Source: Promethearchaeota archaeon (GTDB lineage: Archaea > Asgardarchaeota > Lokiarchaeia > Sigyniarchaeales > SOKP01). From it: 64,000 nt of DNA. The stretch's first letter is position 1. Every line of letters begins with the position of its first letter. The position numbers and the translations under genes were made by a program. The DNA lies in contig JAGXNS010000001.1 of assembly GCA_019894855.1 (NCBI GenBank), positions 3,966 through 67,965 of the forward strand. The letters run 5' to 3'. The notes beneath the pieces are model-generated. The model had not been told where the DNA came from. It made no database searches and worked only from the letters and a program-made list of their open reading frames with translations. Positions 28,745 to 55,365 of the stretch are shown one piece after another.

Positions 28745-29005
28745 CTATTTTACTCCGATTTTTAAAACTCTTATAGCGTCTGCAAACTCTTGTCTCATAA
28801 TGGTTTGATAGAGTGGGTATCGTTTCTCAAACGGTATTTTTTCGTAGCCAGCATATACATCTGGAACGTGTGAATCCCCCATTACTTCTGAGAAAGGGAC
28901 TATAATTTTCGATAACACCGACTTGAAGTTATCGTAGTTCCTTATTTCAATTATGATTGGTCCATGTTCTTCTTTTTTACTCGCTTCTAAACCCATTGTT
29001 CTCAC
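28745..29005 (-). CDS. small protein, PFSE/IPF family member 1
   Basis: IIVPFSEVMGDSHVPDVYAGYEKIPFEKRYPLYQTIMRQEF matches four other ORFs in the window. Confidence 0.6.
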   Translation of the reverse strand: MRTMGLEASKKEEHGPIIIEIRNYDNFKSVLSKIIVPFSEVMGDSHVPDVYAGYEKIPFEKRYPLYQTIMRQEFADAIRVLKIGVK

Positions 29006-29057
29006 ATTTTATTGATTTTTACACGGTAAAATTAAGAGAAGTATTTAATGAAAAATT

Positions 29058-29345
29058 TTAGAATTCAGAATTATTCTTGTTTACTTCTTTCAGGTAAAGC
29101 TTCATGAAAAACCGTTGTCGCTTCAAATATCCTTTGATTCGCTCTGAATTCATATCGGGGTCGTTTTTAATTAGGTTTTGAATAAACTTGAGCGCCTCTA
29201 AATTCTGTTCTTTGGTTTTATCGAATTGTTTTATCATGTAATTGTCTTGCCCACCTTCAGATTCCAAATAGACCAAGAACTCCGTTATTCTCACTTTCTT
29301 TTTGTCGTGGATGGCAAATGGATCGTTCTTGGTCTCAGAATCCAT
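29058..29345 (-). CDS. hypothetical small protein
   Basis: 95-aa ORF between family members 1 and 2 on the same strand. Confidence 0.4.
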   Translation of the reverse strand: MDSETKNDPFAIHDKKKVRITEFLVYLESEGGQDNYMIKQFDKTKEQNLEALKFIQNLIKNDPDMNSERIKGYLKRQRFFMKLYLKEVNKNNSEF

Positions 29346-29457
29346 TATAATATGCTTACGAATCCTTTACATAAAAAGGAAAAATTTACCTATGGGAAAT
29401 CCATTGCGGAAATTTAAATTCCGCTTCTCATATTAGTGATGTAAGCTAACAAAAGTA

Positions 29458-29484
29458 TCAGGGTAGGGGTCCTACCTGATTTTT
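29458..29484. terminator. GC-rich hairpin flanked by T-runs on both strands
   Basis: TCAGGGTAGG-GGT-CCTACCTGA (8 bp plus one bulge) is followed by TTTTT on the plus strand and by ATACTTTT on the minus strand. It sits just downstream of the stop of family member 2. Confidence 0.35.
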
Positions 29485-29491
29485 CTGATAT

Positions 29492-29737
29492 TTAACAAGA
29501 ATTATTCGATGATTCACCAATTTGCTCAATAAATTCATTTAATAAAATTTCTTTAAATTTCGGGTGTCTTACTTTGAATGGCATTTCTTCCAATCCATTA
29601 TATAAATATGATTTTTTTTTGGAATTTCCAAACTCGGAGAATGGTATTATAATATTATTGAAATTAACAAACTCCTCCTCATAGGATTCATTAATATGAA
29701 CAAAACGTAACTTTCTTTCTACTGAATGTGAACTCAT
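29492..29737 (-). CDS. small protein, PFSE/IPF family member 2
   Basis: IIIPFSEFGNSKKKSYLYNGLEEMPFKVRHPKFKEILLNEF. Confidence 0.6.
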   Translation of the reverse strand: MSSHSVERKLRFVHINESYEEEFVNFNNIIIPFSEFGNSKKKSYLYNGLEEMPFKVRHPKFKEILLNEFIEQIGESSNNSC

Positions 29738-29993
29738 AATAAAAAACCTTTCATAAAATTGTAGTTATATCTATAATTAAATCCTAATTTTTAAAATATA
29801 AATTCAATTGGTATAAAAATGAAGTTTTTCAACTCTTTTTCTAATAATCTACAAATAAAAACTTAAAGATTGTAATTTTATCCTTTAATTTCTTTAAATT
29901 CAACTTCATAAAATATCGCTCACTTTCAGAAAACTCTAATTTCTATTTTTTGGAAAGATTTGAACAATTCAATAGATTTTTAGAATTCATTAT

Positions 29994-32579
29994 TTAATTT
30001 TCCTTTTTTATTATTTTTTTACATAGATTAATTCCTAAGCCCGTTTTTCGATTTAATACGTAAGGATTTTCTTTTTTTACCTGAGTAGCGGTGTGGTATC
30101 CCGCGTTGTATAATATCCTCGCTCTTACTCTTGCCACATTGTCTAATCTTAAGACCAAATCAAATAATTCTTCGCTAATTCCGTAATGCACTCGAATTTT
30201 AAGCGTTTCGGCCATTTCCGCTACTCCAACCATGGCTTCAGCGATGTCTGGATCGGACTCACTTAAATGGACCGCGATAATACCAATGAAAGTTATAATC
30301 CGTTCTAAATTGTCCTTAGTGGTATAAAGATCGCCTGCCATTATCTTGTGTCGCTCCAAAATGTCGTCAATTGGCTCTTCGTCGCACCACTCCAAGATAG
30401 GTTGGAGTATTTTGTAGTTTCTAACCCTTAATTCTGCCTTGAGCACCTCGTAGGCTTCTTTTACGATGTCTTGATATGTTTCTATCGCTGCATTTTCGAG
30501 CTTGTACCTTATTAAAACTCCTGAAACTGGATAAAGATACAATCGGATAATGAGCTTTCCGAACTGCGAGCATTTTATGGTTCCATCGTCTTGTTTGATG
30601 ATTAACCCTTTTTCGAACAAGTAATTAAGCACATATTGGTTCTTTACCGACTTAGGAACAATGTCTTCTACGTATTTCTGGAAGTTCTGGTCGGGGATGC
30701 CGATTAGGTGTAGTAAAAACGTAGTGACGTGCTCACAAAAGTCAAAAGAGAATTGATTGTCGTCGTAGCTGTTGGATATCCCGTTTTCAAACCCACACGA
30801 GCATCGTATCCCTACATCGATATCGAATTCCGCAAAAAATACTCCAAAATCGGTTTTAATGTAGCCCGATATGTTAGACTTAGTTAATTTGGTTATCTTA
30901 ATCTGGTGGTGGCGACTGGACAAGTTATCGACTTTTTTAGGGTTGGAATGAAGTTTTAGGATGTTAACCGGAGTAATTTCTTTAATCATCAAGAGTTGAT
31001 CGATGGGAATCTGCCGCCGTTCCATTTTATTTTTGATGCCATACCAAAAATAAGTTTTCTCGAAGAACTCTTTTAATTTATCTAACGTGATAGTTTTTTC
31101 CTCGTAGATCCGCAGAAGCACTTGTTCTTTTAAAGTGTTAAGCTTATTAAGACCCGAAGTTAAATCGTTGTATTTAGGAGTATAAGTTTCAGATGGAAAA
31201 GAGTTCTGGAAGTAATGATCCTCGATCCAGTCCCGTTCGTCTATATTACTCGCTAGTAAATAGCCAAAACCTTCTGAGTCCAGTCCTGGTCTTCCTGCTC
31301 GACCGAGCATTTGAAAAACGGAATTGGCAGAGAACGGCATAAAATATGAGAATCCGTCTCCGTTCTCGTGAAAACCAGAAAAGTTTTTAATGTTGTGGCC
31401 TGAAGTCACATATCGTTTAAAATCTTTTACTATTACTACTCTGGCAGGCATGTTAAGACCGGCACTTAAAGTAGTGGTACAACAGATTATTTTAATTATT
31501 CGTTTTCGATAGGCGTCTTCAACGAGTTTTCTCTCTTTTGGAAGGAGTCCGGCGTGATGGAAAGCCACTCCACATTTAACAGCTTTTTTAAGTATTGCGT
31601 GCCTTCCTTTAATTTTACTGAGTTTTTCTTCCACTTTCTTGCATGCTTTCAGCTCAGCTTCGGAAATCTGTGCTTTAACCAAATTTTTTAGGTTTTGGGT
31701 CATTTGTTGGGTCGATTTTCTTTTGTTGAGGAATACTAATATTTGTCCATTGTTTTCTAAAGTAGCTTTTACGAGTTTTTTGATGGTTGAGTCTTTGTTT
31801 TGTGTAATTTTTATTCTATAGTGTAAAGGAACCGGTCGTTCGTCAGAAATTATTAGCTTAGTATCGTTGCCGAGAGAAGAAAGCCAAGAATTAAAAAATT
31901 CAGGATTTTTAATGGTAGCTGAGAGCCCTATTATCTGTGGTTGGTGTAGAAACTCGTTTAACCTCACGATAAGCGATTCCAACCTCGGTCCACGACTTGA
32001 CTCGCCGATGATATGTATCTCGTCTATAATGATAGTCGAAATATCAAATATCCACTCCTTATCGCTAAAGTTCCGCAAGATTGAGTCCATTTTCTCGTAT
32101 GTCGTAACTATTAAATCTGCTTTTGCTAAACGAGAATCGTCCACATCGTAATCACCTATCGATAACTCGGTTTTAACACCGAACCGTTCGTAGGATTTTT
32201 TGAAATGAACATATTTTTCAGTGGCAAGCGCTTTGTAAGGCACTAAGTAGATTGACTTACCAAATTTTTGAAAGATGTTGTTTAATGCAGACACTTCTCC
32301 TATCAAAGTCTTACCACTTCCCGAGGGCGCACAGACCATAAACGACTTTCGAAAGAACAACCCTTTTTGAATCGCTTCTTTCTGAATTTGCCGGAGCTTA
32401 AAAATTTTTTGCTCGAACAATACTCGAAGGATGCGCTCGTCTTGAATGAATTGAAATATTTCATCTTCCTTTCTTTCTTCATCTGTTGTATTTTTAGAAT
32501 TGCTATAATTAGTAAGAGACATATCCCGTGGTTTTTCTGCAAAAAGCTGTGTTGTTGATTCCCATAACAGTTTTTGCAC
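29994..32579 (-). CDS. Hel308/Ski2-like DNA helicase with an inserted SWIM-type zinc finger
   Basis: APSGSGKT (I), IIDEIH (II), SAT (III) and MLGRAGRPG (VI). C-terminal HhH-like RARILYNAGYHTATQV. CSC-x21-CEH insertion. Confidence 0.85.
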   Translation of the reverse strand: MQKLLWESTTQLFAEKPRDMSLTNYSNSKNTTDEERKEDEIFQFIQDERILRVLFEQKIFKLRQIQKEAIQKGLFFRKSFMVCAPSGSGKTLIGEVSALNNIFQKFGKSIYLVPYKALATEKYVHFKKSYERFGVKTELSIGDYDVDDSRLAKADLIVTTYEKMDSILRNFSDKEWIFDISTIIIDEIHIIGESSRGPRLESLIVRLNEFLHQPQIIGLSATIKNPEFFNSWLSSLGNDTKLIISDERPVPLHYRIKITQNKDSTIKKLVKATLENNGQILVFLNKRKSTQQMTQNLKNLVKAQISEAELKACKKVEEKLSKIKGRHAILKKAVKCGVAFHHAGLLPKERKLVEDAYRKRIIKIICCTTTLSAGLNMPARVVIVKDFKRYVTSGHNIKNFSGFHENGDGFSYFMPFSANSVFQMLGRAGRPGLDSEGFGYLLASNIDERDWIEDHYFQNSFPSETYTPKYNDLTSGLNKLNTLKEQVLLRIYEEKTITLDKLKEFFEKTYFWYGIKNKMERRQIPIDQLLMIKEITPVNILKLHSNPKKVDNLSSRHHQIKITKLTKSNISGYIKTDFGVFFAEFDIDVGIRCSCGFENGISNSYDDNQFSFDFCEHVTTFLLHLIGIPDQNFQKYVEDIVPKSVKNQYVLNYLFEKGLIIKQDDGTIKCSQFGKLIIRLYLYPVSGVLIRYKLENAAIETYQDIVKEAYEVLKAELRVRNYKILQPILEWCDEEPIDDILERHKIMAGDLYTTKDNLERIITFIGIIAVHLSESDPDIAEAMVGVAEMAETLKIRVHYGISEELFDLVLRLDNVARVRARILYNAGYHTATQVKKENPYVLNRKTGLGINLCKKIIKKEN

Positions 32580-32673
32580 TCGATCAAATATAAAGGAAAA
32601 ATCAAATTACCTTAACTCAATAAGAACTTTTTTTTCTTTATTAATGCTCGAATTTTCTTAGAAGAGATTATTT

Positions 32674-34539
32674 ATGACGGATGTATATGGAACCCACGAA
32701 AATATAATCAATAACCTTTCCAGGGACGATCTAACTAAGATCAAAGGGATTGGAACGACAACTTCCGAAAAATTATACAACGCTAAAATCGTAAGGATAC
32801 AACAAATAGCAGAGATGACGCCCGAAAAGTTATCGAAAACTCCTGGAATTGGATTAGCTTCGGCTACAAAGTTTATTGCCGCAGCTAAACTTTATTTAAG
32901 TGGTTCCCAAACAGGTGGAATTGCAAAAAATTCTCCACAAATTGTCCCCTCAATAAAGGACGAATTAACACCAGAACTTATTGAAAAATACGAAGTTACA
33001 GAAGTCGTCGTAGAAGAAATCGAAGAAATCAGTGATGAATCCCTAAAAGAAGTTAATGTAGATTTCGGACGCTCGCAATCTAATCAAAAATGGTTTTCCG
33101 ACAAGTTCAATTACTCGAGATTAACTGCATCTTACCATCCTATTTCAAAACGGACTAAAAATCCTAAAGATACCGTTGAAGAAGAATATGCCCTCATTGA
33201 AAACAAACAAAAAGACTATATGAGTATACCCGCTGAATATGAAGAAAACTCTATGCAAGAAACCATTCCTGAAGTAAATTTTAGACAGGATCAACCAGAC
33301 CTAAAAAATGTTATAGAAGATAAAGAGGTCGATTACACCCTAGTAGAACCAAATATTATCGATTTCGAGAATTCCAGAGAAAAATCTTTTGAGAGTAATA
33401 TTCACCAACAGATTAGCAACATGTTTAAGGATGTAGGTTGCTACGAAATACCGCGGTCGTTAGAATCGTTAAATCAGTTTACTACAAACCTAGATTATCT
33501 CGGGTGTAAGTTAGTAAAAGCTTCAGACAACCTTAAGTTTCTGTTTCTATTTCCTGTGAAATGGCTCGACGAAGAGGGAACGGTGTTAGTTGACGAGATC
33601 AAACTCGAATTAAAGTCGCACACGAAAAAAAACAATCTTGAAGCTTACAACAACCTAGAGCACATCAACCAGAACTTATTACAAGCCAGGGATTCGATGT
33701 ATGAAGATTTAGTTAATAACCAAAATATTCGCGAATTTTTCCAAAAATACTTACAAGTTACCCTTTCTTTAGAGAGAGGGTTCGGAAGCAAGAGTTTGTT
33801 TTTTCTTTCTGGATCTTCTCAGTACAAAGTCGTTATCGAACCTATCTTACTTTGTAACAATCCTCCCCGAAGTATGGAAAAAACGCTTGCTTTCCCGTAC
33901 CAAAGAAGCACGAACCTTCACGCTGTTACCAGACTCGACTTAGCTCCTTTGATAAAATTTTTAGAAAAGAAATATCAAATGATCGAGAAGAGAACGAAAA
34001 AAACAAACTTGGTTAAAGATTTTAGACAATCGGAAGAGAAACTTCGCACTAGAGTGAGAGCGACGTCCCTTCCGATTTTCGGGTACTCAGTAGCGCTCTT
34101 TATTATATATTTCGCAGAGTTGTATTTCTTACTGCGCTTGCTTAACACCATCGGGTTAGCCGTAGTAGGGATTTACATCTCTTTAGTAACACTTTTTTAT
34201 TTCAATTTTTACCGGAACAAAAAGCGATTCGCAGTTCAATTCGAAACTCCTTATTACCTGCAGAACTTAGAATTTAGCGAGATTGATTTACTTGATTTTA
34301 AGGAAGAACTCACAGATGAGTTGCTAACTCAATTTGGCTACGAATGCTTAGGGAAAAACGCTAGATTCGGAGTTATTGAGCAAAGTGAAGCAAACACATT
34401 AAAAAACAACTTAGAGGTTAAACGAATGGAACCAGAATTCCAAAATATGTTCGAACCTGAGCAAGTAAAAGCTGAAACCGTTAGTAATTCAACAACAAAA
34501 TACGGGAGCAAATACTCGTCGTTTTTAGACGACCCATAA
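32674..34539 (+). CDS. membrane protein with an N-terminal (HhH)2 DNA-binding-type domain
   Basis: LTKIKGIGTTTSEKLYNAKIVRIQQIAEMTPEKLSKTPGIGLASATKFIAAAKL forms two helix-hairpin-helix motifs. An acidic linker follows, with a TM hairpin near aa 470-520. Confidence 0.6.
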   Translation: MTDVYGTHENIINNLSRDDLTKIKGIGTTTSEKLYNAKIVRIQQIAEMTPEKLSKTPGIGLASATKFIAAAKLYLSGSQTGGIAKNSPQIVPSIKDELTPELIEKYEVTEVVVEEIEEISDESLKEVNVDFGRSQSNQKWFSDKFNYSRLTASYHPISKRTKNPKDTVEEEYALIENKQKDYMSIPAEYEENSMQETIPEVNFRQDQPDLKNVIEDKEVDYTLVEPNIIDFENSREKSFESNIHQQISNMFKDVGCYEIPRSLESLNQFTTNLDYLGCKLVKASDNLKFLFLFPVKWLDEEGTVLVDEIKLELKSHTKKNNLEAYNNLEHINQNLLQARDSMYEDLVNNQNIREFFQKYLQVTLSLERGFGSKSLFFLSGSSQYKVVIEPILLCNNPPRSMEKTLAFPYQRSTNLHAVTRLDLAPLIKFLEKKYQMIEKRTKKTNLVKDFRQSEEKLRTRVRATSLPIFGYSVALFIIYFAELYFLLRLLNTIGLAVVGIYISLVTLFYFNFYRNKKRFAVQFETPYYLQNLEFSEIDLLDFKEELTDELLTQFGYECLGKNARFGVIEQSEANTLKNNLEVKRMEPEFQNMFEPEQVKAETVSNSTTKYGSKYSSFLDDP

Positions 34540-34587
34540 ATTTTTTTCTTTATAAATTCTCATCGATTTTGGGCTCTATAAGTAAAA

Positions 34588-35361
34588 ATGAATAGAGTTT
34601 TATGTGACATGTCGATAAATATCAAGTCAGGATATAAAATAATTTTTATAATTGGTCTTATCTTTAGCTTCGCTTCGGTGTTTTTAGATTGGTATTACAT
34701 CCAAGGAGTGCTTGATAATAGCGGAGAGCCCATTATGTCGTGGATTTACAACACTTTATTTGGCTGGAGCACTTTATTTACGGAAGCGAATATGTTTAAC
34801 GAATCTTACAGACCACAAAACGCTACTATGCCCGTTGTCATAGTGATGGTTCTTATTGCTTTAGTCTTCCTTTCAGCATATTCAACGCTTTTTCACGATG
34901 TAGAAAAAGGAGGCAACCTGTTAAAAGTAAAGAGGTTTGGCTTTATTACGATTTCGTTAGTTACTCTAATTGGATTTTTCGTGTTGGTGTTCCCTTTATT
35001 TTTTTTATTACCAAACGATCTATATTATCCTTTTATGGTCTATTACGATTATGAATTAGAACTCACGCTTTCTTATTCGATGGGCCCTGGATATTGGTTT
35101 CAGGTGATCGCTTTCGGATGTACATTTCCGTATGCGTTGTTCAACCAGTCGGTAATAAGTACTTTTGAAAAAGAACAGTATGCTCCAGCGGAAGTTATAA
35201 AAACATATATTGAAAATGTGAAGGAACAATTTGATTTAGATAAATTAATTGCTCAAGAAGAATTGGAAATTGAATCCACTCAATTACAGCGGAAAATTGA
35301 TCCTAAGAACGAAGTAGAGCAAATTTACGAAGACTTTTTAGCTACGAGGGGGAGAAAGTGA
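34588..35361 (+). CDS. polytopic membrane protein
   Basis: Four or five hydrophobic helices and an acidic coiled C-terminal tail. Its stop overlaps the next GTG start (GTGA). Confidence 0.55.
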   Translation: MNRVLCDMSINIKSGYKIIFIIGLIFSFASVFLDWYYIQGVLDNSGEPIMSWIYNTLFGWSTLFTEANMFNESYRPQNATMPVVIVMVLIALVFLSAYSTLFHDVEKGGNLLKVKRFGFITISLVTLIGFFVLVFPLFFLLPNDLYYPFMVYYDYELELTLSYSMGPGYWFQVIAFGCTFPYALFNQSVISTFEKEQYAPAEVIKTYIENVKEQFDLDKLIAQEELEIESTQLQRKIDPKNEVEQIYEDFLATRGRK

Positions 35362-36212
35362 GCGAGCGGTTGCTTGATGTTAAGTTAAAGCGACTGATCC
35401 AGCTCTGTAAGGAAACAGGCAACTATAAAAAGCTAGCCGTGGTAAGCTTTGTGCTCGTAAGCAACACAGTTGACGAAATAGGGATAAAATTAGGCATGCG
35501 AACGAGAGAGAAGGACTCGGGCGAAAATATTTTTGAATACATGAAACTCGTAAATAAAATTTTTGCCTTTAATTTCAATGTAATGGTGTTTAAACCAGAA
35601 CTTATAGAGAAATTGTCTCAAATCGAGCTTTTATTTTTGAAACGACAGGGGGATATAAATCTTGAGCAGGTGAAAAGCGTGATTGAAGCGTATTACGAGC
35701 TTCGGAAGCTAGAAGTCCCAAATTTACACGAAAATATTAATTCAGAAGTTTTGAACCGAAATCGTACGGTATCGATGTTTTCTTTTCTTTCAGGTGGTCA
35801 ATCTAAAAGACGAAAAAGTGAAAATACGCTTAACCCAATGTTAATGCAAAGATTCAAAGACGAGGAAAAAGCGCTTCAAATACAGCTCGAACAAAAATTC
35901 GATAAAAACGCTTTCGAAAAGATTTTACACTTGAAAACTGTACGGAAGAATTTGGAGCAAAAATCGAGGGGAAAGATCGTAATATCGGGGGCTTTAAAGG
36001 ACAATATATCGTATCGTCAATCAAAAGAAAACATTGGACAGTTAATGATCTTCAGCTTAATTATATTATTTGCCATGATTGGGGCGGTGCTATTAGTGGA
36101 ATCTTTTATGTATGGTGTTTTATCGATGTCTATTAGCAATACAACCCTCATTTGTTTTGGTGTTATTGTAATCTTAATTTTTATTAACAAATTGTATTAT
36201 GGAAAAAGGTGA
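35358..36212 (+). CDS. hypothetical protein with C-terminal TM hairpin
   Basis: GTG 35358 is preceded by GAGGGGGAGAAA. Soluble helical N-terminal part, two C-terminal TM helices. Confidence 0.55.
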   Translation: MSERLLDVKLKRLIQLCKETGNYKKLAVVSFVLVSNTVDEIGIKLGMRTREKDSGENIFEYMKLVNKIFAFNFNVMVFKPELIEKLSQIELLFLKRQGDINLEQVKSVIEAYYELRKLEVPNLHENINSEVLNRNRTVSMFSFLSGGQSKRRKSENTLNPMLMQRFKDEEKALQIQLEQKFDKNAFEKILHLKTVRKNLEQKSRGKIVISGALKDNISYRQSKENIGQLMIFSLIILFAMIGAVLLVESFMYGVLSMSISNTTLICFGVIVILIFINKLYYGKR

Positions 36213-36220
36213 AATAAAAA

Positions 36221-42921: not shown

Positions 42922-42946
42922 ATCCAAGATACGAACAGATCTTTGG

Positions 42947-44308: not shown

Positions 44309-44384
44309 CCTATCGTTACAAAGAAATATTTATTAGTTCATACATTATTAATAAAGTAAAAAACACTTAGGTAATACGCTTCAA

Positions 44385-44888: not shown

Positions 44889-44890
44889 AG

Positions 44891-45832: not shown

Positions 45833-45993
45833 ATTTTGGTAACCTTTATTCGTAATTTTTCTTAGACATTTTCTACGAATGCAGTTCAATAAACAATATT
45901 ATTATTAACTTCAATTTAAAGAATGAGATATTCATTTTTTATTTATAGAATAATAATAATCTTTATCTTGAATCTTTATTTCATAAAGAAATT

Positions 45994-46344
45994 ATGACAA
46001 AATTAAATGACTTATTTCAAGAATGGAACGAGTTAAATATTAAAGCTGGAGAATCAATGGGTCAATTTGATTTTACAAAGATTAAAGAAATACGAGAGAG
46101 TCAATCAAAAGTCGAAAATTCAATATACGAGGTATTGAAAAATAACGCGTCTGATGATTTGTTAAAAATTCTACCAGAGGAATGTGGCGAATTAGAGATG
46201 GGATACAATACGAAAGACAAAATTTTTTACTTTGTAATGCTCGATCCCGAATTTGAGGACGAAGAAGAGACAATATTATTAGCTGTAACTATAGATCTTA
46301 ATAATAAAGTTGGTTTACTCAAAGACTTTAAGATAGAAGACTAG
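45994..46344 (+). CDS. hypothetical acidic protein
   Basis: 116-aa ORF, no motif recognised. Confidence 0.4.
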   Translation: MTKLNDLFQEWNELNIKAGESMGQFDFTKIKEIRESQSKVENSIYEVLKNNASDDLLKILPEECGELEMGYNTKDKIFYFVMLDPEFEDEEETILLAVTIDLNNKVGLLKDFKIED

Positions 46345-46368
46345 TCAAAAATAAAAAAAAGAATGATT

Positions 46369-47898
46369 TTAAAACTTATCAGCGTTTTCATACCATGCTG
46401 GAAACCACTGATAGTATTCTTTTGGAAAGGCTTTTTGTAATCCCTCGTAAGTAGCTTTAACTAAAGCAATTTTTCCTGAGCGATCGCGATGAATAACGAT
46501 TAATCCTTGTTGTTCTAATTGTTCAAAAATCTTCCGCAACTCAGATCTACCTCCTCCTATATCTTCTCGGACATCGTCGGGAGTCATATACAAACCCGGA
46601 TTTACTTTATAATCGTGAGAGATAACTTTTAACACGTTTTCTTCTGTTATATCCATTCCTTTGAATTGAGATTCTTTTCTTGATCTAATGGGAGCATTAA
46701 CCTCATCGTTCCATCTCAATCTCATAGGCTTGTTAAAGGAAGGAAGCATAGCACAGAAACGGTAAATAATCATCTTTTGAACCTCTGTCGTCCCCGCTAC
46801 AATTTCTCCAATTTTAGCCTCACGTAAAATTCTTTCAGCTGGTAAAAATTTTGTAAGTCCATCCCCGCCTAGGATTTGGATGGCTTTAAGTCCAATGTCT
46901 CTTGCGTATTCAGTATTAATCATTTTAGCTATTGAAGCTTCAACCATTGGTTCTCCCCCATCATCTATTAATTTGGCACAGTGATAAGAAAACAGCCTTG
47001 AAACCTTTGCTTTTGTTATAATTTCAGCAATTTTTTCTTGTACGCCCGGAAATTGATTCGTGGTTTTTCTAAATTGAACACGTCTTTTTGTGAAATGAAA
47101 CAATAAATTGATGACATCTTCAAACATCCCACTGAAAACTGCCGCCCCAATTAAGCGTTCGAAATTTAAGCCTGCCATCATTACATTCCATCCCTTTCCA
47201 ACTGCACCAATACGATTAATGTCAGGAATTCTAACGTGATCAAAATCTATATACCCGTTAGGAACGTTATCAAATCCAATTAAGGGGTTGATTTTTTCTA
47301 AACTAAATCCAGGTCTACCCTTTTCCACCATGAAAGAAGTGATGTGGCCATATTGCTTTCGAAGAGCCTTATCATCGCTTGTTTTTGCATAAATAAAGTA
47401 TCTATCAGAAACGCCAGCTCCAGTAATGAATCGTTTTTTACCATTTAGGATCCACTCATCTCCATCTTTGACCGCAGATGTAAAAACATTTGCAGCGTCT
47501 GATCCTGCAAACGGTTCAGTAATACATAAAGCGCCTAATTCTTCCCCGCTTGCGATTTTAGGAAGCCACATTTTTTTTTGTTCATCGGTTCCAAACCTTA
47601 AGACTTGTTCCAATCCAGCTAACATGCTTACGGTAAATACATGTCCTACAGCGTAAAGCCTTCCAAGTTGTGCTGCTACAATACAGCTTCCAGTAGCGCC
47701 TAATTCTAATCCCCCGTATTCTTTTGGAACTCCTGCTCCAAAATATCCTTTCTTCGCTACTTTTTTAACGAGTGGCCACGGAAATTTTGTATTCCAGAAG
47801 TATTCTTCAGCTTCTTCGAAGTTGTCTTCGACAAACTGTCTCACATCTTTGTAAATAGCCCTCTGTTCGTCATTCCACCAAAAAAATTCTTCACTCAT
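46369..47898 (-). CDS. acyl-CoA dehydrogenase with C-terminal winged-helix-like extension
   Basis: CITEPFAGSDA, the GxGW region and IVAGTTEVQKMIIYR are ACAD blocks. The extra about 110 aa at the C-terminus includes LEQQGLIVIHRDRSGKIALV. Confidence 0.85.
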   Translation of the reverse strand: MSEEFFWWNDEQRAIYKDVRQFVEDNFEEAEEYFWNTKFPWPLVKKVAKKGYFGAGVPKEYGGLELGATGSCIVAAQLGRLYAVGHVFTVSMLAGLEQVLRFGTDEQKKMWLPKIASGEELGALCITEPFAGSDAANVFTSAVKDGDEWILNGKKRFITGAGVSDRYFIYAKTSDDKALRKQYGHITSFMVEKGRPGFSLEKINPLIGFDNVPNGYIDFDHVRIPDINRIGAVGKGWNVMMAGLNFERLIGAAVFSGMFEDVINLLFHFTKRRVQFRKTTNQFPGVQEKIAEIITKAKVSRLFSYHCAKLIDDGGEPMVEASIAKMINTEYARDIGLKAIQILGGDGLTKFLPAERILREAKIGEIVAGTTEVQKMIIYRFCAMLPSFNKPMRLRWNDEVNAPIRSRKESQFKGMDITEENVLKVISHDYKVNPGLYMTPDDVREDIGGGRSELRKIFEQLEQQGLIVIHRDRSGKIALVKATYEGLQKAFPKEYYQWFPAWYENADKF

Positions 47899-47986
47899 AC
47901 TTTTTCATCTTTTGCTAATTATATGTAATTATACTTGAACTAGTGATATAGAAAAAATAAACCAATACATAAATTTTCGTTAAAAG

Positions 47987-48691
47987 TTAATGCTCTCTAG
48001 AGTTCAGTATCTTTTTTTTTGTAAAGATAACAAGCGGAATTATACTAACGATGGTAATTATTAAAAAACTGTTCCCGAAAGGAACTTTTATAATGATATC
48101 TTCTTCATTTAATTCCCATCTGTAGATTGTCGTTCCGTTTGTAATTTTTTCAATAATCGTAGAAAATCCTGCTGAATTAATAGATATTTCAAAGCTGGTA
48201 CTATTTCCATAATAATCAAAAACGATTTTTTCTCCAATTGTGGAATAATTTAGGAACCCTTCTCTTTTGACCGCTTCACCTATGAGCGTTAAATTAACTG
48301 GAGTAGGAAATACAAATAAATTGCCGTTAAAAAATCCTTCTGAAGACCAGTTTAAAAAATTTAACGTTTTATTATAAGCCATGTAAAAAGAATTTGTATA
48401 GCGTGGCACCCAAGAATATCGGTGGTAGAACTCTAACGTATGATTTATAAAAAGATAGTTTTTTTCGTTATAAGTCTGGTTATAAATGGTTGAAGCGGTG
48501 AATCGCACAAATTCAACGTCCATATACCACGATTCAGTTGCATTTACACTTTCCCAGATAATTTCACTTTCTTCTTCAACTGGAAATGTAGACTCTCCTA
48601 AAGTCGTGCTGCCAAGTGTATAAAGAGGGAAAATTGACATGAAAATTAAGCAAAGACATGCAATTGATGTTATAAATCTTTTTTGACTCAT
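47987..48691 (-). CDS. secreted, C-terminally anchored glycoprotein-like protein
   Basis: Signal/anchor ITSIACLCLIFMSIFPL, eight or more N-x-S/T sequons, and C-terminal TM FLIITIVSIIPLVIF plus a basic tail. Confidence 0.55.
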   Translation of the reverse strand: MSQKRFITSIACLCLIFMSIFPLYTLGSTTLGESTFPVEEESEIIWESVNATESWYMDVEFVRFTASTIYNQTYNEKNYLFINHTLEFYHRYSWVPRYTNSFYMAYNKTLNFLNWSSEGFFNGNLFVFPTPVNLTLIGEAVKREGFLNYSTIGEKIVFDYYGNSTSFEISINSAGFSTIIEKITNGTTIYRWELNEEDIIIKVPFGNSFLIITIVSIIPLVIFTKKKILNSREH

Positions 48692-48803
48692 TTTTTAATT
48701 TCATTAAGGGCTGATGGATTGTATATAAAATATCTCTTTTCAAATATTTAAGTCTAGACAATTAATTATCGAACTAGTTTGAAATTGAATCATTAATTGC
48801 ATG

Positions 48804-49481
48804 TTATTTTTCTAACGCTTTTTTTTCGAGAACTTCTGAATATTCTTCCCATTTGTCTTTTTCATTTGGGTTCTTCTTTGTTATATGGAACAGACAAGTC
48901 TTTGCTCCCGCTGGGATGGTTGTTTTAAATTCTACTTGATATTCATGTTGTAGTACGCCCGAATCTCTAAAGGCATTGATTATTCCTTGAACTAAATATC
49001 TTTGAACTCTACAATCAAAAGCTTTGTAAACATTTTGTAGAGGACACCAAATTATATCAAAAGAACATTGTTCTTCGTTGTCAATTCGCGGATCCTCAAT
49101 TGAAGTCCAAGCTTGAGTATTTACTATCGTTGCTAAAAAACTCATTAGTTCTATATCGGAAATTTCAGCGGGTATTTGTATGTTTTCAAGAATTTGATTC
49201 CCCATCATATATCCTGTTCTAATTAAAGCATCGATGACTATTTTTTGACCCTCACTACCTAACTTTTTTTCGACATCTTGTAATATATTGATGACGGCCA
49301 TGGCCATAAACAAACCAAATTGTAGTAAAGAGGTTGGGTCAAAATCTTTACGATTTATAACATCTGCTCTAAAACGCTCTAGAGTCTTCTTAAACGGTTC
49401 ACCAAGCTTAGTTTTTTTCCACATCTCTTCTTTACGATTAGCGCCTTTTAAAATACCTTTTTCATCCATCTTACATAACAC
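48804..49481 (-). CDS. hypothetical protein
   Basis: 225-aa ORF with conserved-looking Cys residues (CSFDIIWCPL, FDCRV, KTCLFH). No confident family. Confidence 0.45.
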   Translation of the reverse strand: MLCKMDEKGILKGANRKEEMWKKTKLGEPFKKTLERFRADVINRKDFDPTSLLQFGLFMAMAVINILQDVEKKLGSEGQKIVIDALIRTGYMMGNQILENIQIPAEISDIELMSFLATIVNTQAWTSIEDPRIDNEEQCSFDIIWCPLQNVYKAFDCRVQRYLVQGIINAFRDSGVLQHEYQVEFKTTIPAGAKTCLFHITKKNPNEKDKWEEYSEVLEKKALEK

Positions 49482-49583
49482 CTAAAAGTATGGTCTTCTA
49501 TATTAAAATTACATTAAAATTGGTATTTATTATAATTGAAATTAATTTAAAAATCTAAATTTATATTAGCTATAGTGATAATT

Positions 49584-50327
49584 ATGAAAAAATTAGTTTT
49601 ATTACGTCATGGAGAGAGCGAATGGAACAGGCAAAACAGGTTTACTGGTTGGACGGACGTAGATCTTTCAGTTCAGGGAATAATCGAAGCTGAAAAGGCG
49701 GGGAATTTACTTAAAGATAATAACTTTACTTTTGATATTGCGTATACTTCGGTTCTTAAAAGAGGGATTAGAACCTTATGGATCGTTTTAGATAAGATGG
49801 ATTTAATGTGGATACCCGTATTTAGATCTTGGAGGTTAAACGAAAGACATTATGGTGCACTTCAAGGACTTTACAAATCTAAGTTAGCAGCCGAACTAGG
49901 AGAAGAACAAGTGTTAATTTGGCGGAGAAGTTATGATACACCTCCTCCGACTCTTAAAACTTCTGATCCAAGATACCCCGGTAATGATAAGAGATACGAG
50001 GATCTTGAATCCAAAGATATACCCTTAGCAGAATGCTTGAAAGATACTGTTGAGCGTTTTTTACCATATTGGCATGAGACAATTGCTCCAACCATTAAGA
50101 GTGGAAAAAATATCTTAATCTCCGCTCATGGTAATAGTTTAAGAGCTCTAGTTAAGTATTTGGATAATGTTTCTGAAGATGAAATAGTAAAGTTAAATAT
50201 TCCAACAGGTATTCCTTTAATATATGAACTTGATGACGATCTAAAGCCTATACAGCACTACTACTTAGGCGATCCAGAAGCTGTTAAAAAAGCAACTGAA
50301 GCTGTTGCAAATCAGGGAAAGATTTAG
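49584..50327 (+). CDS. gpmA: 2,3-bisphosphoglycerate-dependent phosphoglycerate mutase
   Basis: [41 protein letters not shown] and [14 protein letters not shown] 49584 is preferred over GTG 49575. Confidence 0.9.
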
Positions 50328-50361
50328 CTGTATATCAAGATATTATTAAAAAAAACGATTT

Positions 50362-51027
50362 TTATGTTAATCTTCTGTCTTTTTTCATAGAAAATTCATG
50401 TCCGATAATCCAACACATTAGGAGTGTAAAAAGAATCCACTCCGAAAAATGAGAAATTTCCAATGCTAATTCATGATTAAAAAAATTTATATTAGTAAAA
50501 TAGATGAATACTAAAAAAGGAAAAGCTACTACGAATCCTGATAGAGCTTGAAGCTTAGAAATACCTTTAGCCGTCCACTCTGAAATTCCATAAAGTATGC
50601 AATAAGCTAAACCTCCAAAAAAGAAAAAACCCGCCCCAAAGTTATGTAAATATTGAGAAATATCGCCAGGAAACAACCCCATCATAAAAATCCCTACAGA
50701 TGATATAAAACCGAAAATAAACGATAAATTCACAAGAATTATCGACACTTCCTTTTTAATTAGAAAAACGCTTAGGTTTAGAAAAAAACACACCATAACA
50801 ACACCGGATATCATACTTCCTACATTAAAAATAATGTTAGATCCATTCGGTCCTATTCCTAGATGGCTTAAATAATGCGTAAAAATACTAAATGACGAGT
50901 CACCTAAATTATATAAAATTAATGAAAATAAGATAGTTAATCCAGGGAAGAAGACCCCAAAAGAAGTTAAGTAACTCCGATTAAACTTATTAAAGAGGAT
51001 TTCATATCTTTCAAAGAAAATTATTGT
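50362..51027 (-). CDS. DUF998-like membrane protein (conserved N-terminal 71 codons lie upstream of the first ATG)
   Basis: The track ORF is 50362..50814. The same frame stays open to 51027 and encodes a TM helix plus THYLSHLGIGPNG, matching NYISDLGS in the paralogue at 4201..4866. Confidence 0.5.
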   Translation of the reverse strand, partial: TIIFFERYEILFNKFNRSYLTSFGVFFPGLTILFSLILYNLGDSSFSIFTHYLSHLGIGPNGSNIIFNVGSMISGVVMVCFFLNLSVFLIKKEVSIILVNLSFIFGFISSVGIFMMGLFPGDISQYLHNFGAGFFFFGGLAYCILYGISEWTAKGISKLQALSGFVVAFPFLVFIYFTNINFFNHELALEISHFSEWILFTLLMCWIIGHEFSMKKDRRLT

Positions 51028-51186
51028 TCACATCGCTTACTTGAAATCTAATATGATTAATAAAATATGATTTACTAATAATAAACCTCTTAGATAAGTC
51101 TTTTTATTGCTTAAAAGGCTAATTTATTAAAAATCTCAAAAAGATGAAAAAAGAGTTTAATAAGATAACGAGATATTTAACTAATT

Positions 51187-51975
51187 ATGGAAAAAAATCT
51201 AATAATTGATAGTCCTACGATTTCAAATGTTGTTTTTTATCCACAAAAAACGAAAATGCCTGAAAAGCTAGAATCAAATATCAAAGTTCTCAGGTTTGAT
51301 ATCTACGATAATATCTCAATAGGAGGTTTTTTTTATGGAACTAAGGAAGAAAATCCGACAATTCTGTTATTTCACGGGAACGGGGAAATCGCTTCTGACT
51401 ATCAATATATCTCGCATTTATTTTGGGAGTGTAATGTAAATCTCGCTGTTGTTGATTTCCGAGGGTATGGATTTAGCTCAGGCGAGCCCTACTATACTAG
51501 TTTGATATCTGATGCGATGCCTATTTACGACGCTTTTAGGCAATGGCTGGATGAAATGAATTATCTCGATTCTCTCTTCGTTCAAGGGAGATCTCTTGGA
51601 AGCGTTTGTGCGGCAGAAATTGGGGCACACAATCCAACCAATTTAAGAGGTGTTATATTTGAGAGTGGTTTCGCTAGCATCTTTAACATGATGAATGATG
51701 TATTTGGCGTCCGTAGCCCAGCCTTAACACCAGATTCAGTAAAAGAATACTCGAACGATACTAGAGTTAAAAAATTTAAAGTTCCGACTTTACTAATTCA
51801 CGGGACATCAGATGGGATTATTCCTTATTCTGAATCGCAATTACTATATCAAGATTTACCCAATAGTGTTGAGAAAAAATTAGTTTTAATTGATAAAGCC
51901 GGGCACAACAATATCCTCTCGTTTAAGCAAGATTATTTTTTGCCATTATCAGAGTTCATTCAAAAATATAAGTAA
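51187..51975 (+). CDS. alpha/beta hydrolase
   Basis: LLFHGNGE, nucleophile elbow GRSLGS, HGTSDGIIPY and AGHNN. Confidence 0.8.
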   Translation: MEKNLIIDSPTISNVVFYPQKTKMPEKLESNIKVLRFDIYDNISIGGFFYGTKEENPTILLFHGNGEIASDYQYISHLFWECNVNLAVVDFRGYGFSSGEPYYTSLISDAMPIYDAFRQWLDEMNYLDSLFVQGRSLGSVCAAEIGAHNPTNLRGVIFESGFASIFNMMNDVFGVRSPALTPDSVKEYSNDTRVKKFKVPTLLIHGTSDGIIPYSESQLLYQDLPNSVEKKLVLIDKAGHNNILSFKQDYFLPLSEFIQKYK

Positions 51976-52122
51976 CACAATTTATTGCCTATACTTAATC
52001 GAATTCTTGATCGAGAAAGATTTATAAACAAAAGCAAATAGTTACTTTAATGAAATTCTAAAAATAAAATGTAAATTGAAATTAGTTATACTATAAATTA
52101 TAATAATGAGGGATTAAAACTT

Positions 52123-52515
52123 ATGAAAGAAGAAATTTCAAAACTATTAAAAATTCTATTTTTAGTGCATTTTTTCGTAGCCGTAATATTTGGTTTAGTT
52201 TTTACATTTGTTGTTGAGTACTATGTAAGTATAACAGGTTGGCCTTATTTAGACCCAGTAACTGGGCGTGTATTGGGAGCGGTATTTTTAGGACTAGCGG
52301 TAGCTTCTTTATTAGCGTGGAGGGAAACCAAATGGCACCATGTTAAAATAATAGTTCAAATGGAAATAACATGGCTCGCAATAGGTACAGGTGTTCATAT
52401 TTTCTCAATATTTTACTTACCAGTTCCGATAATTATCTGGTTACAAACAGCTATCTTTATATTTTTCTTCGTAGCGTTTACGTGGTTTTATTACGACCAG
52501 GAAATGGCAAAGTAA
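52123..52515 (+). CDS. small four-helix membrane protein
   Basis: 130-aa hydrophobic ORF. Confidence 0.5.
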   Translation: MKEEISKLLKILFLVHFFVAVIFGLVFTFVVEYYVSITGWPYLDPVTGRVLGAVFLGLAVASLLAWRETKWHHVKIIVQMEITWLAIGTGVHIFSIFYLPVPIIIWLQTAIFIFFFVAFTWFYYDQEMAK

Positions 52516-52620
52516 AAAGTAACTTAAAGGTTTCATTAAATTCTTTTACTTTTTTTATTTTTACGCATCAACTACTCACGAAATAGTTTCTGAATAAAAA
52601 AAAGATTAGCTAAAAATAAT

Positions 52621-52821
52621 TTAACTTATGAATTCACTTAACATTATCTTCTGAAATTCGATAAATTTTTCTCGAAAAGGTATTTTTTCTTTTCCAGAAT
52701 AAACGTCTTTAGCTCCAATATAACCGAGTAATTTTTTAAAAGAAACAATGGTCTCGGATAACTCTAATTCAAGCATGAAGAAGTTGTTATCAAATTTCCG
52801 TCCAGGTGCTTTTGAACTCAT
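52621..52821 (-). CDS. small protein, PFSE/IPF family member 3
   Basis: TIVSFKKLLGYIGAKDVYSGKEKIPFREKFIEFQKIMLSEF. Confidence 0.55.
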   Translation of the reverse strand: MSSKAPGRKFDNNFFMLELELSETIVSFKKLLGYIGAKDVYSGKEKIPFREKFIEFQKIMLSEFIS

Positions 52822-52908
52822 TTTATAATCTCATTATATCACGATTAAATTATAATTAAATAGACACATCTAAATTAGTGATTTGATGGTCTGTCAGTGC
52901 ATTGTTAA

Positions 52909-53274
52909 TTAAGGTATTGGGCTACTGCTTCGTAATTCTTGCTTTAAAATGCGTTTTAATTCTGAACTACCTCTCTTAGTTTTAGGATTTCTATTCTCTT
53001 GCTTGGAGAAAATATCAACAGGGTAATTCTTTTTGTATAAGTTAAGAAAAAGTAAAATTAAGCTTGAGACGTTTCTAAAATTGCCTTTATTGTTTTTATT
53101 AGTACAAAGATTTAAGAATAGTTCAGTCAACAGCGAGAATTTTTTTTTCTGGATATCTTTATTATCAGGTAAATTTGAGAAGGTAATGATTTTTTCGAGA
53201 ATTATTTGATGATCCTTTCTCCAATTATTCAGAATCTTTATTTCCAATGTTAAATCAATACAACGATTTAACAA
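52909..53274 (-). CDS. hypothetical protein
   Basis: 121-aa ORF upstream of member 3 on the same strand. Confidence 0.35.
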   Translation of the reverse strand: MLNRCIDLTLEIKILNNWRKDHQIILEKIITFSNLPDNKDIQKKKFSLLTELFLNLCTNKNNKGNFRNVSSLILLFLNLYKKNYPVDIFSKQENRNPKTKRGSSELKRILKQELRSSSPIP

Positions 53275-53357
53275 TAATTTTAAACTAAATTATTTAAAGA
53301 AATAGATTTATTCAATTTTTTGGTCAAATTACTTGCTGGGTGTTGTATATTTTAATG

Positions 53358-54260
53358 TTAGAGCAGATTTCCTTTAGCGATTAGTACAACCTTGCCGCCA
53401 ACAGTGATATAGAATTTTCCTTCTTTTTCTTCAGCCTTCAAAAGGAGTAAAGATTTTCGACCAATTTCATAGCCTTGTTCAACTCGAATATCGATTTTTT
53501 TTTTACCAAAATAATCATGCTTCACTAGGTAAGCCGCTAAACAACCATTTGCAGAACCTGTAGCTGGGTCTTCTGGGACTCCATAGTAATCAGCGAAAAA
53601 TCGTACATTTAAATCGTTTATTTTGTCGTAAGTTTCGGGACAAAAGACTAATATGGTTTTAGCTTGTGTATTTTGAATCAGATGGGTATACTTTTCCTTA
53701 TTTATACGTACTTTTTTTAGGGCATCTAAGGACTTTAGAGGAACAATGAGAGTATGAATACCAGTATAAACCTCTTGAATTTTAAATCTGCCGTCGATAT
53801 CACTTTCGTTTATACTTAAGACATCTGCCAACAGGTCAGGCGCAAAAAATCCACTGAATGCTGGTTCATTATGCTCCATCCATGTTTCTGAAAGAATTTC
53901 ACCTTTATATTTGAATAAAATTGCAATAGGTCCAATTTTTAAGTTTAAAGACATGGTTTTCGCCTTCTCTTTCATGAATTCTTGCTGTATTACGTAAGCT
54001 GTACCAATTGTAGGATGTCCTGCAAATGGTAGTTCTACTTCAGGAGTAAAAATTCTGACATCGTAATTCTCGACAGAAGTAATAAAAGTCGTTTCACTAT
54101 AATTCATTTCTTTTGCTATACTCTGCATCTCTTCGTCGTTAAGCTTATTTCTACTTATTACGACTGCGAGTTGATTGCCAGAGTATTTCCCTTCTGCAAA
54201 TACATCAACTATGTAAAAAGGAATGCCTTCGGTTTTTAATTCATTCATGGTATTTATCAC
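53358..54260 (-). CDS. PhzF-family isomerase
   Basis: PFYIVDVFAEGKYSGNQLAVV, ETTFI, FAGHPTIG and DPATGSANG blocks. Confidence 0.85.
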   Translation of the reverse strand: MINTMNELKTEGIPFYIVDVFAEGKYSGNQLAVVISRNKLNDEEMQSIAKEMNYSETTFITSVENYDVRIFTPEVELPFAGHPTIGTAYVIQQEFMKEKAKTMSLNLKIGPIAILFKYKGEILSETWMEHNEPAFSGFFAPDLLADVLSINESDIDGRFKIQEVYTGIHTLIVPLKSLDALKKVRINKEKYTHLIQNTQAKTILVFCPETYDKINDLNVRFFADYYGVPEDPATGSANGCLAAYLVKHDYFGKKKIDIRVEQGYEIGRKSLLLLKAEEKEGKFYITVGGKVVLIAKGNLL

Positions 54261-54435
54261 TGATTTCTTAGATTATTAATAATTAAATGTCTTTTAAAAT
54301 TTTACTAAGTTTTAATATTCTTTTAGGAATTTTAAATTCTATGTTATTTATGAATTTTTAATTTACTTCTATCGACGAAATATTTTAAATATTTCAATTG
54401 CTTCAAATCAAAAAATTAAAAATTAAAAAAAAGAA

Positions 54436-54810
54436 TCATAAATACATAGTAAGCTTGTCTAAATCTTTCTTCATTACAGATCTCTTCTTTTCCTTTTCCT
54501 CTTCTGGGCCAAATCCTTGTTCGTCTTCTTCTAAGCTTGCTACTTCTTCATCGTAAGCGGCTTCCACCATCATTCCGTACTTTATCGCGTAAGCTATTAA
54601 TTCAGGAATGACAGTTATCATGCTTTTAAAACTAAATATTTCGCTTAACCGGCTTAAAATTTTTATCATATCTTCGAAAGGATTGACATTTATATTAGGA
54701 TTATCCATTATATCCATAATTCTTTTAAAAAGCACCTCATAGAACATATTTAATTGTTCCGGATCTAATGCAAACCCATCATCTTCTTCTTCTTCTCCCA
54801 AAAGATTCAC
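54436..54810 (-). CDS. hypothetical acidic protein
   Basis: 124-aa ORF with Glu/Asp-rich termini. Confidence 0.4.
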   Translation of the reverse strand: MNLLGEEEEDDGFALDPEQLNMFYEVLFKRIMDIMDNPNINVNPFEDMIKILSRLSEIFSFKSMITVIPELIAYAIKYGMMVEAAYDEEVASLEEDEQGFGPEEEKEKKRSVMKKDLDKLTMYL

Positions 54811-54921
54811 CTAAAATTATTTAGTTAATATTAAGTAATATGTAAAGAATGGATTTTTAAGTTTTTAGATTTACTAAAAAAGAATTTAAATGTAGTAGCG
54901 AAATCGCCCTGTTCGTAAATA

Positions 54922-55146
54922 TTACAATTCCTTTAATAGAATTTGTTTAAATTTTTTATCCCATTTACTAAAAGGGATACCATCATTTTTAGAACTAAAT
55001 TTAGTAGAACTTGGTTTTTTAAATATTTCTGAAAATGGAATTACAACTTGAGATAGAACCTGTTGATATTCTGATTCTATTTCGTACAACTCTTCTAACC
55101 GTAGTCGAACACTTTCTCTAATTTTTTCAATTGCCGTCTGAAACAC
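54922..55146 (-). CDS. small protein, PFSE/IPF family member 4
   Basis: VVIPFSEIFKKPSSTKFSSKNDGIPFSKWDKKFKQILLKEL. Confidence 0.55.
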   Translation of the reverse strand: MFQTAIEKIRESVRLRLEELYEIESEYQQVLSQVVIPFSEIFKKPSSTKFSSKNDGIPFSKWDKKFKQILLKEL

Positions 55147-55164
55147 GCTCTATTCTTTTTTTAA

Positions 55165-55365
55165 TTATTCAATTATCGTTAATTTATGATATTTTCGAAG
55201 AACTTCTTCAAATTCGATTTTCATTAAAGATTTGTAAATAGGATGTCGACTATTAAATCGTATAGTTTCCTCACCAGAATATATATCCGTTTTAGTTGGA
55301 AGCAATCCAAATGAATTAACAGGTTTTATTTTCTTCATAATTTTTTCGGTATTAATATTTAACAA
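55165..55365 (-). CDS. small protein, PFSE/IPF family member 5
   Basis: KIKPVNSFGLLPTKTDIYSGEETIRFNSRHPIYKSLMKIEF. It overlaps the RHH gene by 14 nt. Confidence 0.55.
   Translation of the reverse strand: MLNINTEKIMKKIKPVNSFGLLPTKTDIYSGEETIRFNSRHPIYKSLMKIEFEEVLRKYHKLTIIE

Follow-up and report, generated by a model that had tools for sequence, protein, structure and literature searches.

In Bacillus, the SinI-SinR and AbbA-AbrB pairs consist of small anti-repressor or co-regulator proteins that are encoded beside their own transcription factor. Here, we describe a family of six small paralogous proteins in a 64,000-nucleotide stretch of the genome of a Promethearchaeota archaeon (Lokiarchaeia; contig JAGXNS010000001.1 of assembly GCA_019894855.1, positions 3,966 to 67,965 of the forward strand), hereafter called the window. 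As in the Bacillus pairs, a predicted helical protein of ~60-80 amino acids (aa) is encoded beside a co-regulated, putative DNA-binding regulator with a probable palindromic operator, and paralogues are found elsewhere. The layout is also reminiscent of ParD-ParE and CopG-like operons, in which a ribbon-helix-helix (RHH) protein is encoded first and a small protein second, with tight or overlapping spacing and a palindrome in the operon's own promoter. In addition, the family is short, narrowly distributed, unannotated and multi-copy, like the lineage-specific domain-of-unknown-function (DUF) families of the archaeal genomic dark matter, a class described in PMC6393860.

The domain that defines the family comprises ~55 residues and, judged by sequence searches, is confined to the Loki lineage and previously undescribed. 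A lineage-specific protein-interaction module, either a regulator cofactor or a hetero-oligomer subunit, would explain the observations best, a reading that we hold with low confidence.

Family members in the window

A sequence-only reading of the window had reported five small minus-strand open reading frames (ORFs) with a shared motif. All five were confirmed where it had located them, with no larger overlapping ORF, and a sixth, divergent member that had been overlooked was added. The bit scores refer to the leave-one-out test described below.

28745..29005, minus strand: member A, 86 aa as called, 54.5 bits, full motif IVPFSE...DVYAGYEKIPFEKRYPLYQTIMRQEF
29492..29737, minus strand: member B, 81 aa, 43.8 bits, full motif; orthologues P0004, P0027 and P0084
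52621..52821, minus strand: member C, 66 aa and thus near the minimal domain, 31.9 bits; orthologues P0050, P0054, P0105 and P0111
52909..53274, minus strand: sixth member, 'long' subfamily, 121 aa as called
54922..55146, minus strand: member D, 74 aa with a GTG start, 22.7 bits; orthologues P0059, P0119 and L125 4853-5056
55165..55365, minus strand: member E, 25.2 bits; orthologues P0228, P0240 and L125 4486-4665

The alignment core of the first five members reads S-x2-(I/V)(I/V)PFS ... D(I/V)Y-x-G-x-E-x-IPF-x2-R-x-P-x-(Y/F)(K/Q)-x-I(L/M)-x2-EF. For statistical support, a hidden Markov model (HMM) was built from four members and the fifth was scored against it, with 1000 shuffles of the left-out sequence as control. 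The left-out member exceeded its best shuffle each time (22.7-54.5 bits versus 8.5-14.6 bits) and was always the top non-training match among the 846 six-frame ORFs of the window. The similarity of the five ORFs is far beyond chance and the family is statistically sound.

The shared motif itself had been drawn too strictly. The family similarity is real, but the whole motif as first written is present only in members A and B. Member C carries IVSFKK where the others have IIPFSE, and a proline is missing as well. Member D keeps VIPFSE and GIPF...FKQILLKEL, lacks Y-x-G-x-E and ends in EL, whereas member E retains the second half of the motif only (DIYSGEETIRFNSRHPIYKSLMKIEF) and has no IIPFSE half. 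The N-termini, previously called unrelated, are indeed weakly conserved, but not wholly unrelated, since MSS(K/H)S opens many of the sequences and helical structure is predicted there. Two start codons probably differ from those called. For member A, an ATG at 28996 would give 83 aa as in its orthologues, which share 60-84% identity with it in metagenome-assembled genomes (MAGs) of Lokiarchaeota. For member E, a start at the ATG at 55338 (57 aa), 13 nucleotides (nt) past the stop codon of the preceding RHH gene, is likely and is preferred because the called TTG at 55365 falls within that gene.

The ORF at 52909-53274 has a weak match to the family HMM (12.8 bits, E 0.0046), and single-linkage clustering of the ORFs in the neighbourhoods placed it with the family. 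It belongs to a 'long' subfamily of ~104 aa in other genomes; the window copy was aligned with 15 orthologues, and the consensus is ...QKKKFxLLSKLVADLF..KNS..CFNNISNLIILILNIYNEKFPVDIYS...YKHILKEEFL. An alignment of the subfamily with the main family by hhalign gave a probability of 96% (E 4.3e-9). Helix 2, the last helix and PVDI(Y/F)S...K.ILK.E(F/L) are retained, while G-x-E-x-IPF is lost. In nearly all other genomes, the long variant has family members on both sides. The G+C content of the window is 28-39%, and no tRNA or Rfam matches were found in it.

Distribution, predicted structure and selection

With the family profile, 273 matches were found among 5.8 billion proteins. Among the best 120 listed, lengths were 61-108 aa, the named proteins were called 'hypothetical' and the organism names were solely Lokiarchaeota or Promethearchaeota. 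An exhaustive search of 1.84 billion representative sequences gave 220 clusters at 50% identity, with lengths of 42-120 aa among the 150 listed; for ten distant clusters, the named sequences were from Loki- or Promethearchaeota and the remainder were unnamed metagenome sequences. At the DNA level, a degenerate pattern for D[IV]YxGxExIPF was searched in one genome per GTDB species and found at least 119 stretches. Bacterial and phage portal protein matches to this pattern were due to chance and were removed by the family HMM. By the HMM, at least 114 ORFs were confirmed as members; they lie in 74 loci, and 22 loci have two to four of them in tandem.

The MAGs with family-bearing loci are mostly labelled Promethearchaeota, with a few labelled Hod-, Hermod-, Thor- or Odinarchaeota (loci L015, L030, L033, L036, L046, L060, L065, L081, L084, L098, L101, L115 and L122). 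Several of these non-Loki-labelled MAGs encode a 213-aa protein (P213, see below) that is 58-81% identical to its Promethearchaeota counterparts. Because of this identity across labels, the non-Loki labels were treated as unverified, and the submitters' labels may differ from the true placement. Two pattern scans of the 2.9 million contigs of IMG/VR returned no relative of the family.

The view that the family cannot be assigned to any characterised one held up in all searches made. The family proteins of the window have no match in Pfam and essentially none in NCBIfam, PADLOC and PHROGs (none significant in PHROGs). When 136 diverse members were compared with Pfam, no Pfam family was matched by more than two of them. 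An hmmsearch of the family profile against PDB sequences gave no match even at E ≤ 10, and full-text literature searches found no description of the family.

Two members were modelled with AlphaFold2 (AF2): member A from its own orthologue-rich alignment (mean predicted local distance difference test score (pLDDT) 73.6, predicted template modelling score (pTM) 0.37) and member C from a diverse alignment of 147 sequences (mean pLDDT 79.8, pTM 0.39). Both models show a variable N-terminal helix, a second helix across the IIPFS region and a C-terminal helix across YK-x-IL-x2-EF. The near-invariant D-x-Y-x-G-x-E-x-IPF forms a confident, non-regular loop between helices 2 and 3, and the pLDDT is ~90-96 across the last 25-30 residues (motif and final helix). 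The domain is thus predicted to be a small three-helix unit. Foldseek comparison of both models with the PDB found no analogue (best E-values 3.2 and 6.9, template modelling scores ≤ 0.24). The four members for which charge was computed are near-neutral (isoelectric points 5.9-9.0, net charge -2 to +1.5), which argues against a nucleic-acid-binding role.

The sequence-only reading had described a diverged, multi-copy family under selection, and this is borne out. The proportion of nonsynonymous differences (pN) is lower than that of synonymous differences (pS) in 14/14 pairs of window members and their orthologues. For the 11/14 pairs with unsaturated dS, dN/dS is 0.11-0.63, a ratio inflated by the use of stop-to-stop ORFs. 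The family evolves under purifying selection. A recent or strain-variable expansion does not agree with the data: in many genomes, orthologues of each individual paralogue occupy fixed syntenic positions, and since this applies to every paralogue of the window, the duplications must be old.

Conserved gene neighbourhoods

Gene neighbourhoods were compared by clustering all ORFs of the 74 loci together with the window. The counts below come from at least 74 HMM-confirmed loci that were chosen by the family motif ('family-selected'), two of which had been fetched earlier by another route. Three contexts recur, and each paralogue type holds a fixed chromosomal position across many genomes. The two clusters of members that had been noted (28.7-29.7 kb and 52.6-55.4 kb) lie where they were placed, but they correspond to these three conserved genomic contexts. 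The paralogues are nearly always located directly downstream of, and co-directional with, the gene of an RHH protein with a winged helix-turn-helix (wHTH) domain, of a 95-aa protein or of the 'long' variant.

Members E and D belong to the context with the order 213-aa protein, divergent RHH-wHTH protein, member and optionally a second member (54922-56613 in the window):

55352..55777, minus strand: RHH-wHTH regulator, 141 aa; ribbon-helix-helix at the N-terminus, winged-HTH-like region at the C-terminus; first gene of the operon, followed by E and D
55859..55878, no strand: palindrome ATGCATCTTCAGTGATGCGT, consensus ATGCATC-N6-GATGCAT with one mismatch, in the divergent promoter between the RHH gene and P213
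55972..56613, plus strand: P213, a 213-aa protein of unknown function, divergent from the RHH operon

The regulator matches RHH_1 at residues 26-49 by a narrow margin (20.6 bits versus a cut-off of 20.5), Mga HTH with 20.6 bits and the ParG RHH domain with E 0.048. Its profile has 220 homologues; the 120 listed have lengths of 141-178 aa, and where these carry a plausible organism label, it is always an Asgard one, mostly Promethearchaeota. One homologue is annotated as RHH with PF01402, and some match PF19807. Based on its RHH and wHTH domains, the regulator is taken to be a DNA binder.

The association of the family with RHH proteins, already suspected from the sequence alone, is real and strongly conserved. 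A member lies directly downstream of the RHH gene in 28/28 family-selected loci. Because these loci had been chosen by the family motif, the regulator was taken as an independent starting point. Regulator-selected metagenome contigs carry the divergent 213-aa gene in 5/5 cases, and the next gene is a family member in the 4/4 contigs that reach downstream (gap of 28-36 nt, E 1e-7 to 1e-28), with a second member behind the first in three of them. Over the 28/28 and 4/4 loci, the RHH-to-member spacing ranges from a slight overlap to ~35 nt.

The palindrome is located ~80-87 nt upstream of the RHH start, flanked by two TATA-like boxes, and its copy at 55859-55878 is unique in the 64 kb. It recurs in 19/27 orthologous intergenic regions, compared with 0.24% of shuffles, and several of the misses are regions shortened by wrong start calls. 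In more distant loci, GATGCA half-sites are found in other arrangements. The palindrome is a probable operator of the RHH-wHTH protein, and its position in the promoter fits autoregulation by this protein. We also considered an operator common to all family genes, and rejected it: the palindrome is confined to the RHH promoter, and looking for repeats in 52.5-56.1 kb turned up no other convincing candidate.

P213 is present in 25 family-selected and 5/5 RHH-selected loci. Its mean column identity of 75%, with many invariant aromatic and proline residues, is far above that of its neighbours. Neither Pfam nor the PDB gave a match to it, and an impression by eye that it is TFIIB/cyclin-like is therefore unsupported. 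Two further genes lie nearby in the window. Downstream of member D, a strongly acidic 124-aa protein without a family match is encoded (54436-54810, minus strand), which has a close 123-aa orthologue at a similar place in contig L125 (6442-6813). Between the RHH operon and the pair of long variant and member C lies a PhzF-family gene (53358-54260, minus strand; PF02567, E 4.5e-59) that is outside the conserved context of other genomes.

Members A and B are found among helicase genes, in the order Ski2-like helicase, P95 and member, followed on the opposite strand by a DUF1922-like zinc-ribbon gene and a Hef-like helicase gene (25987-32579 in the window, where member A lies behind P95 and member B ahead of it).

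29058..29345, minus strand: P95, a 95-aa protein of unknown function, whose conserved position is immediately ahead of a family member; it may be the partner of member A

This order is repeated in two independently fetched Loki contigs. A member follows P95 directly in 17/17 P95-bearing loci, and the orthologues of member A are always directly downstream of P95, beside the DUF1922/Hef genes. P95 has no Pfam or PDB match. We asked whether P95 might be related to the RHH protein through a wHTH domain, or might have diverged from the family, and rejected both (hhalign probabilities of 0.5%, 0.05% and 0.1%). Member B sits between the Ski2-like helicase gene and P95; elsewhere, this position holds an oppositely oriented longin-domain gene (L001 9111-9509 and L002 9082-9501; Fuz_longin_1, E 6e-8 and 1.4e-3).

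Around these members, the Hef-like helicase gene is immediately followed by the DUF1922/DUF5817-like zinc-ribbon gene, and this pair faces the Ski2/Hel308-like helicase gene (25987-28737, plus strand; 29994-32579, minus strand). The helicase block is kept across many Loki MAGs, always with P95 and a member in between. In MAG CSMAG_616 (GCA_030599585.1), three blocks of P95, member, DUF1922 and Hef genes lie on separate contigs (L002, L022 and L109), with members ~63-71% identical to those of the window; either a duplication or a bin that mixes related populations would account for them.

The third context consists of arrays of up to three genes (member, long variant, member). The next gene on that strand usually encodes a Frag1/DRAM/DUF998-like membrane protein, and beyond it come the genes of a RING-finger protein and of an alpha/beta hydrolase encoded on the opposite strand. 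A reduced version is seen in the window, with the long variant (52909), member C (52621), the hydrolase (51187-51975) and the membrane protein:

50362..50814, minus strand: P214, a Frag1/DRAM/Sfk1- or DUF998-like multi-pass membrane protein (Pfam Frag1 E 2.7e-6 and DUF998 E 6.5e-5, both under the gathering score)

P214 is directly downstream of the array in most genomes and array-adjacent in ~20 loci, whereas it is displaced by ~1.8 kb in the window. In loci L008, L035 (3002-3337), L041, L060, L083, L101 and L107, the membrane protein and hydrolase genes enclose a conserved gene for a ~110-aa protein, which has zinc ribbons at the N-terminus and a RING-H2 finger (zf-RING_2, 28.8 bits) at the C-terminus. 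No orthologue of it was found in the window, where a 130-aa membrane protein (52123-52515) occupies that position.

The domain also occurs in larger proteins. In a Thorarchaeota-labelled MAG, a 324-aa protein (L065 3482-4456) contains two tandem family domains and an unknown ~170-aa domain, and its gene adjoins a DUF998-like membrane protein gene. Eleven such fusion proteins of 241-338 aa were collected (L065, P0396-P0406, L128 and L129 among their labels): seven have two family domains, one has a single domain and three have only a degenerate first half. The C-terminal ~170-aa domain is conserved, with motifs ETAP..W and WLAYKT, and has no match in Pfam or PDB sequences. In the three loci examined, a ~100-aa gene with a weak match to the long-variant HMM (13-17 bits) lies ahead of the fusion gene. 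Two domains per chain, together with the fixed order of long variant and then member, suggest that the domains act in pairs.

Possible roles and relation to known systems

The family is new, and its role is most probably of a known kind. In the reading we prefer, the domain would be a protein-protein interaction module rather than an enzyme, a toxin or a DNA binder, and each paralogue would pair with the product of the gene upstream of it and/or with other paralogues in hetero-oligomers. Members E and D would be made together with the RHH-wHTH regulator and act as co-repressor or anti-repressor, modulating its binding to the palindrome in the promoter shared with the 213-aa gene. The choice of partner might lie in the variable N-terminal helix, and the fold or contact common to all in the conserved loop together with helix 3. 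This pairing of the paralogues with the proteins encoded just upstream, with E and D as cofactors of the regulator, is a tentative proposal, held with low confidence although it is the likeliest of the readings considered here. Of the three ideas raised by the sequence-only reading (toxin-antitoxin, anti-defence and regulatory adaptor), the last fits best, as an interpretation of these data.

Several observations weigh against this proposal. An hhalign comparison of the family with the RHH-wHTH alignment gave a probability of 0.2% and no similarity, which leaves a common oligomerisation helix of the SinI/SinR type unsupported. Since no copy of the palindrome was found away from the RHH promoter, nothing visibly places the other four members in the same regulon. 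Fairly close relatives may keep their gene order even when no functional link exists, and the conserved residues are largely hydrophobic and may define the fold only. The fold is itself tentative, because the pTM values are low (0.37-0.39) and no structural analogue was found.

The paralogues could instead form a hetero-oligomeric scaffold, in which member, long variant and member assemble at fixed stoichiometry to serve the membrane protein, the RING-finger protein and the hydrolase, while adjacency to the RHH gene reflects gene regulation only and no physical partnership. The arrays in conserved order, usually with the membrane protein gene next on the same strand and the RING-finger and hydrolase genes beyond, would agree with this, as would the tandem-domain fusions beside a DUF998-like membrane protein gene with a long-variant-like gene ahead; moreover, the AF2 models of single chains lack compactness (pTM 0.37-0.39), which is to be expected of obligate oligomers. 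Yet the window array has only two genes, two plus-strand genes separate it from the membrane protein gene, and at the RHH and P95 sites no membrane protein gene lies near the members. We consider a scaffold somewhat less likely than the preferred reading. A wider role would make the domain the common connector of a Lokiarchaeia-specific regulatory network, with hetero-complexes, hinted at by the conserved arrays and the tandem-domain fusions, that link the RHH-wHTH factor, the Frag1/DRAM-like membrane protein, the RING-finger protein and helicase-associated factors. This is improbable; if true, it would represent a new fold and a new signalling logic that arose in the archaeal lineage nearest to the eukaryotes.

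A type II toxin-antitoxin-like system, with the RHH-wHTH protein as autoregulating antitoxin, the small protein as a new toxin and the other paralogues as solitary or differently partnered toxins, would suit the two-gene layout (RHH gene first, then the small gene after an overlap or a gap of up to ~35 nt), the palindromic, operator-like site in its own promoter, the PF19807 matches of some regulator homologues and the resemblance of the regulator's N-terminus to CopG/ParG. But the small protein matches no toxin family, defence model or structure, the operon is found at the same place beside the divergent 213-aa gene wherever the flank was read rather than in a patchy or mobile manner, most paralogues lack an antitoxin-like neighbour, the domain is also fused to a larger protein, and no relatives occur in the viral contigs of IMG/VR. 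We judge this explanation decidedly improbable. Small size, multiple copies and lack of annotation would also be expected of anti-defence proteins, or of small proteins derived from viruses or mobile elements and spread in the genome; this has largely been refuted and is very improbable, given the absence of relatives in IMG/VR and of significant PHROG matches, the fixed positions among housekeeping-type genes (helicases, methylase, hydrolase), the purifying selection and the old, diverged paralogues. The toxin-antitoxin and anti-defence associations raised by the sequence-only reading are thus not upheld, as conserved synteny, purifying selection and the lack of a toxin-like fold argue against both. 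Precursor peptides of a ribosomally made natural product, processed from tandem paralogues, would share the arrays of small paralogous genes, but no genes of maturation enzymes (radical SAM, YcaO, lanthionine synthetase or peptidase/transporter) are among the conserved neighbours, conservation falls on a folded, helical C-terminal domain instead of a leader with a hypervariable core, and the domain occurs within proteins of 241-338 aa, all of which makes this exceedingly unlikely.

Unannotated genes abound in Asgard genomes, where lineage-specific families with defined partners are very few. The present family is directly testable, since it combines a sharp motif with three fixed contexts, a predicted operator and natural fusions, and has at least six copies per genome. 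Should E and D prove to be cofactors of the RHH-wHTH regulator, they would be among the first described Lokiarchaeia-specific transcription-factor accessory proteins. Even if the domain were only a structural filler, it would still merit a DUF-type entry, by which hundreds of 'hypothetical proteins' would be named consistently.

Compared with SinI/SinR and AbbA/AbrB, the small proteins share no sequence or profile similarity with their regulator (hhalign 0.2%) or with any known family. The regulator is an archaeal fusion of RHH and wHTH domains with the small gene downstream, and binding between the two is hypothetical. In contrast to ParD-ParE and CopG-like operons, the second gene has no toxin fold or family, the RHH protein carries an additional wHTH domain, the locus stays in one place and is passed on vertically instead of being mobile, and five of the six paralogues are outside the RHH pairing or behind other genes. 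Finally, the family differs from most dark-matter ORFs in having a defined motif, ~220 clusters at 50% identity, fixed contexts and fusions, and this combination of motif, clusters, contexts and fusion architecture offers testable partners, unlike most dark-matter ORFs.

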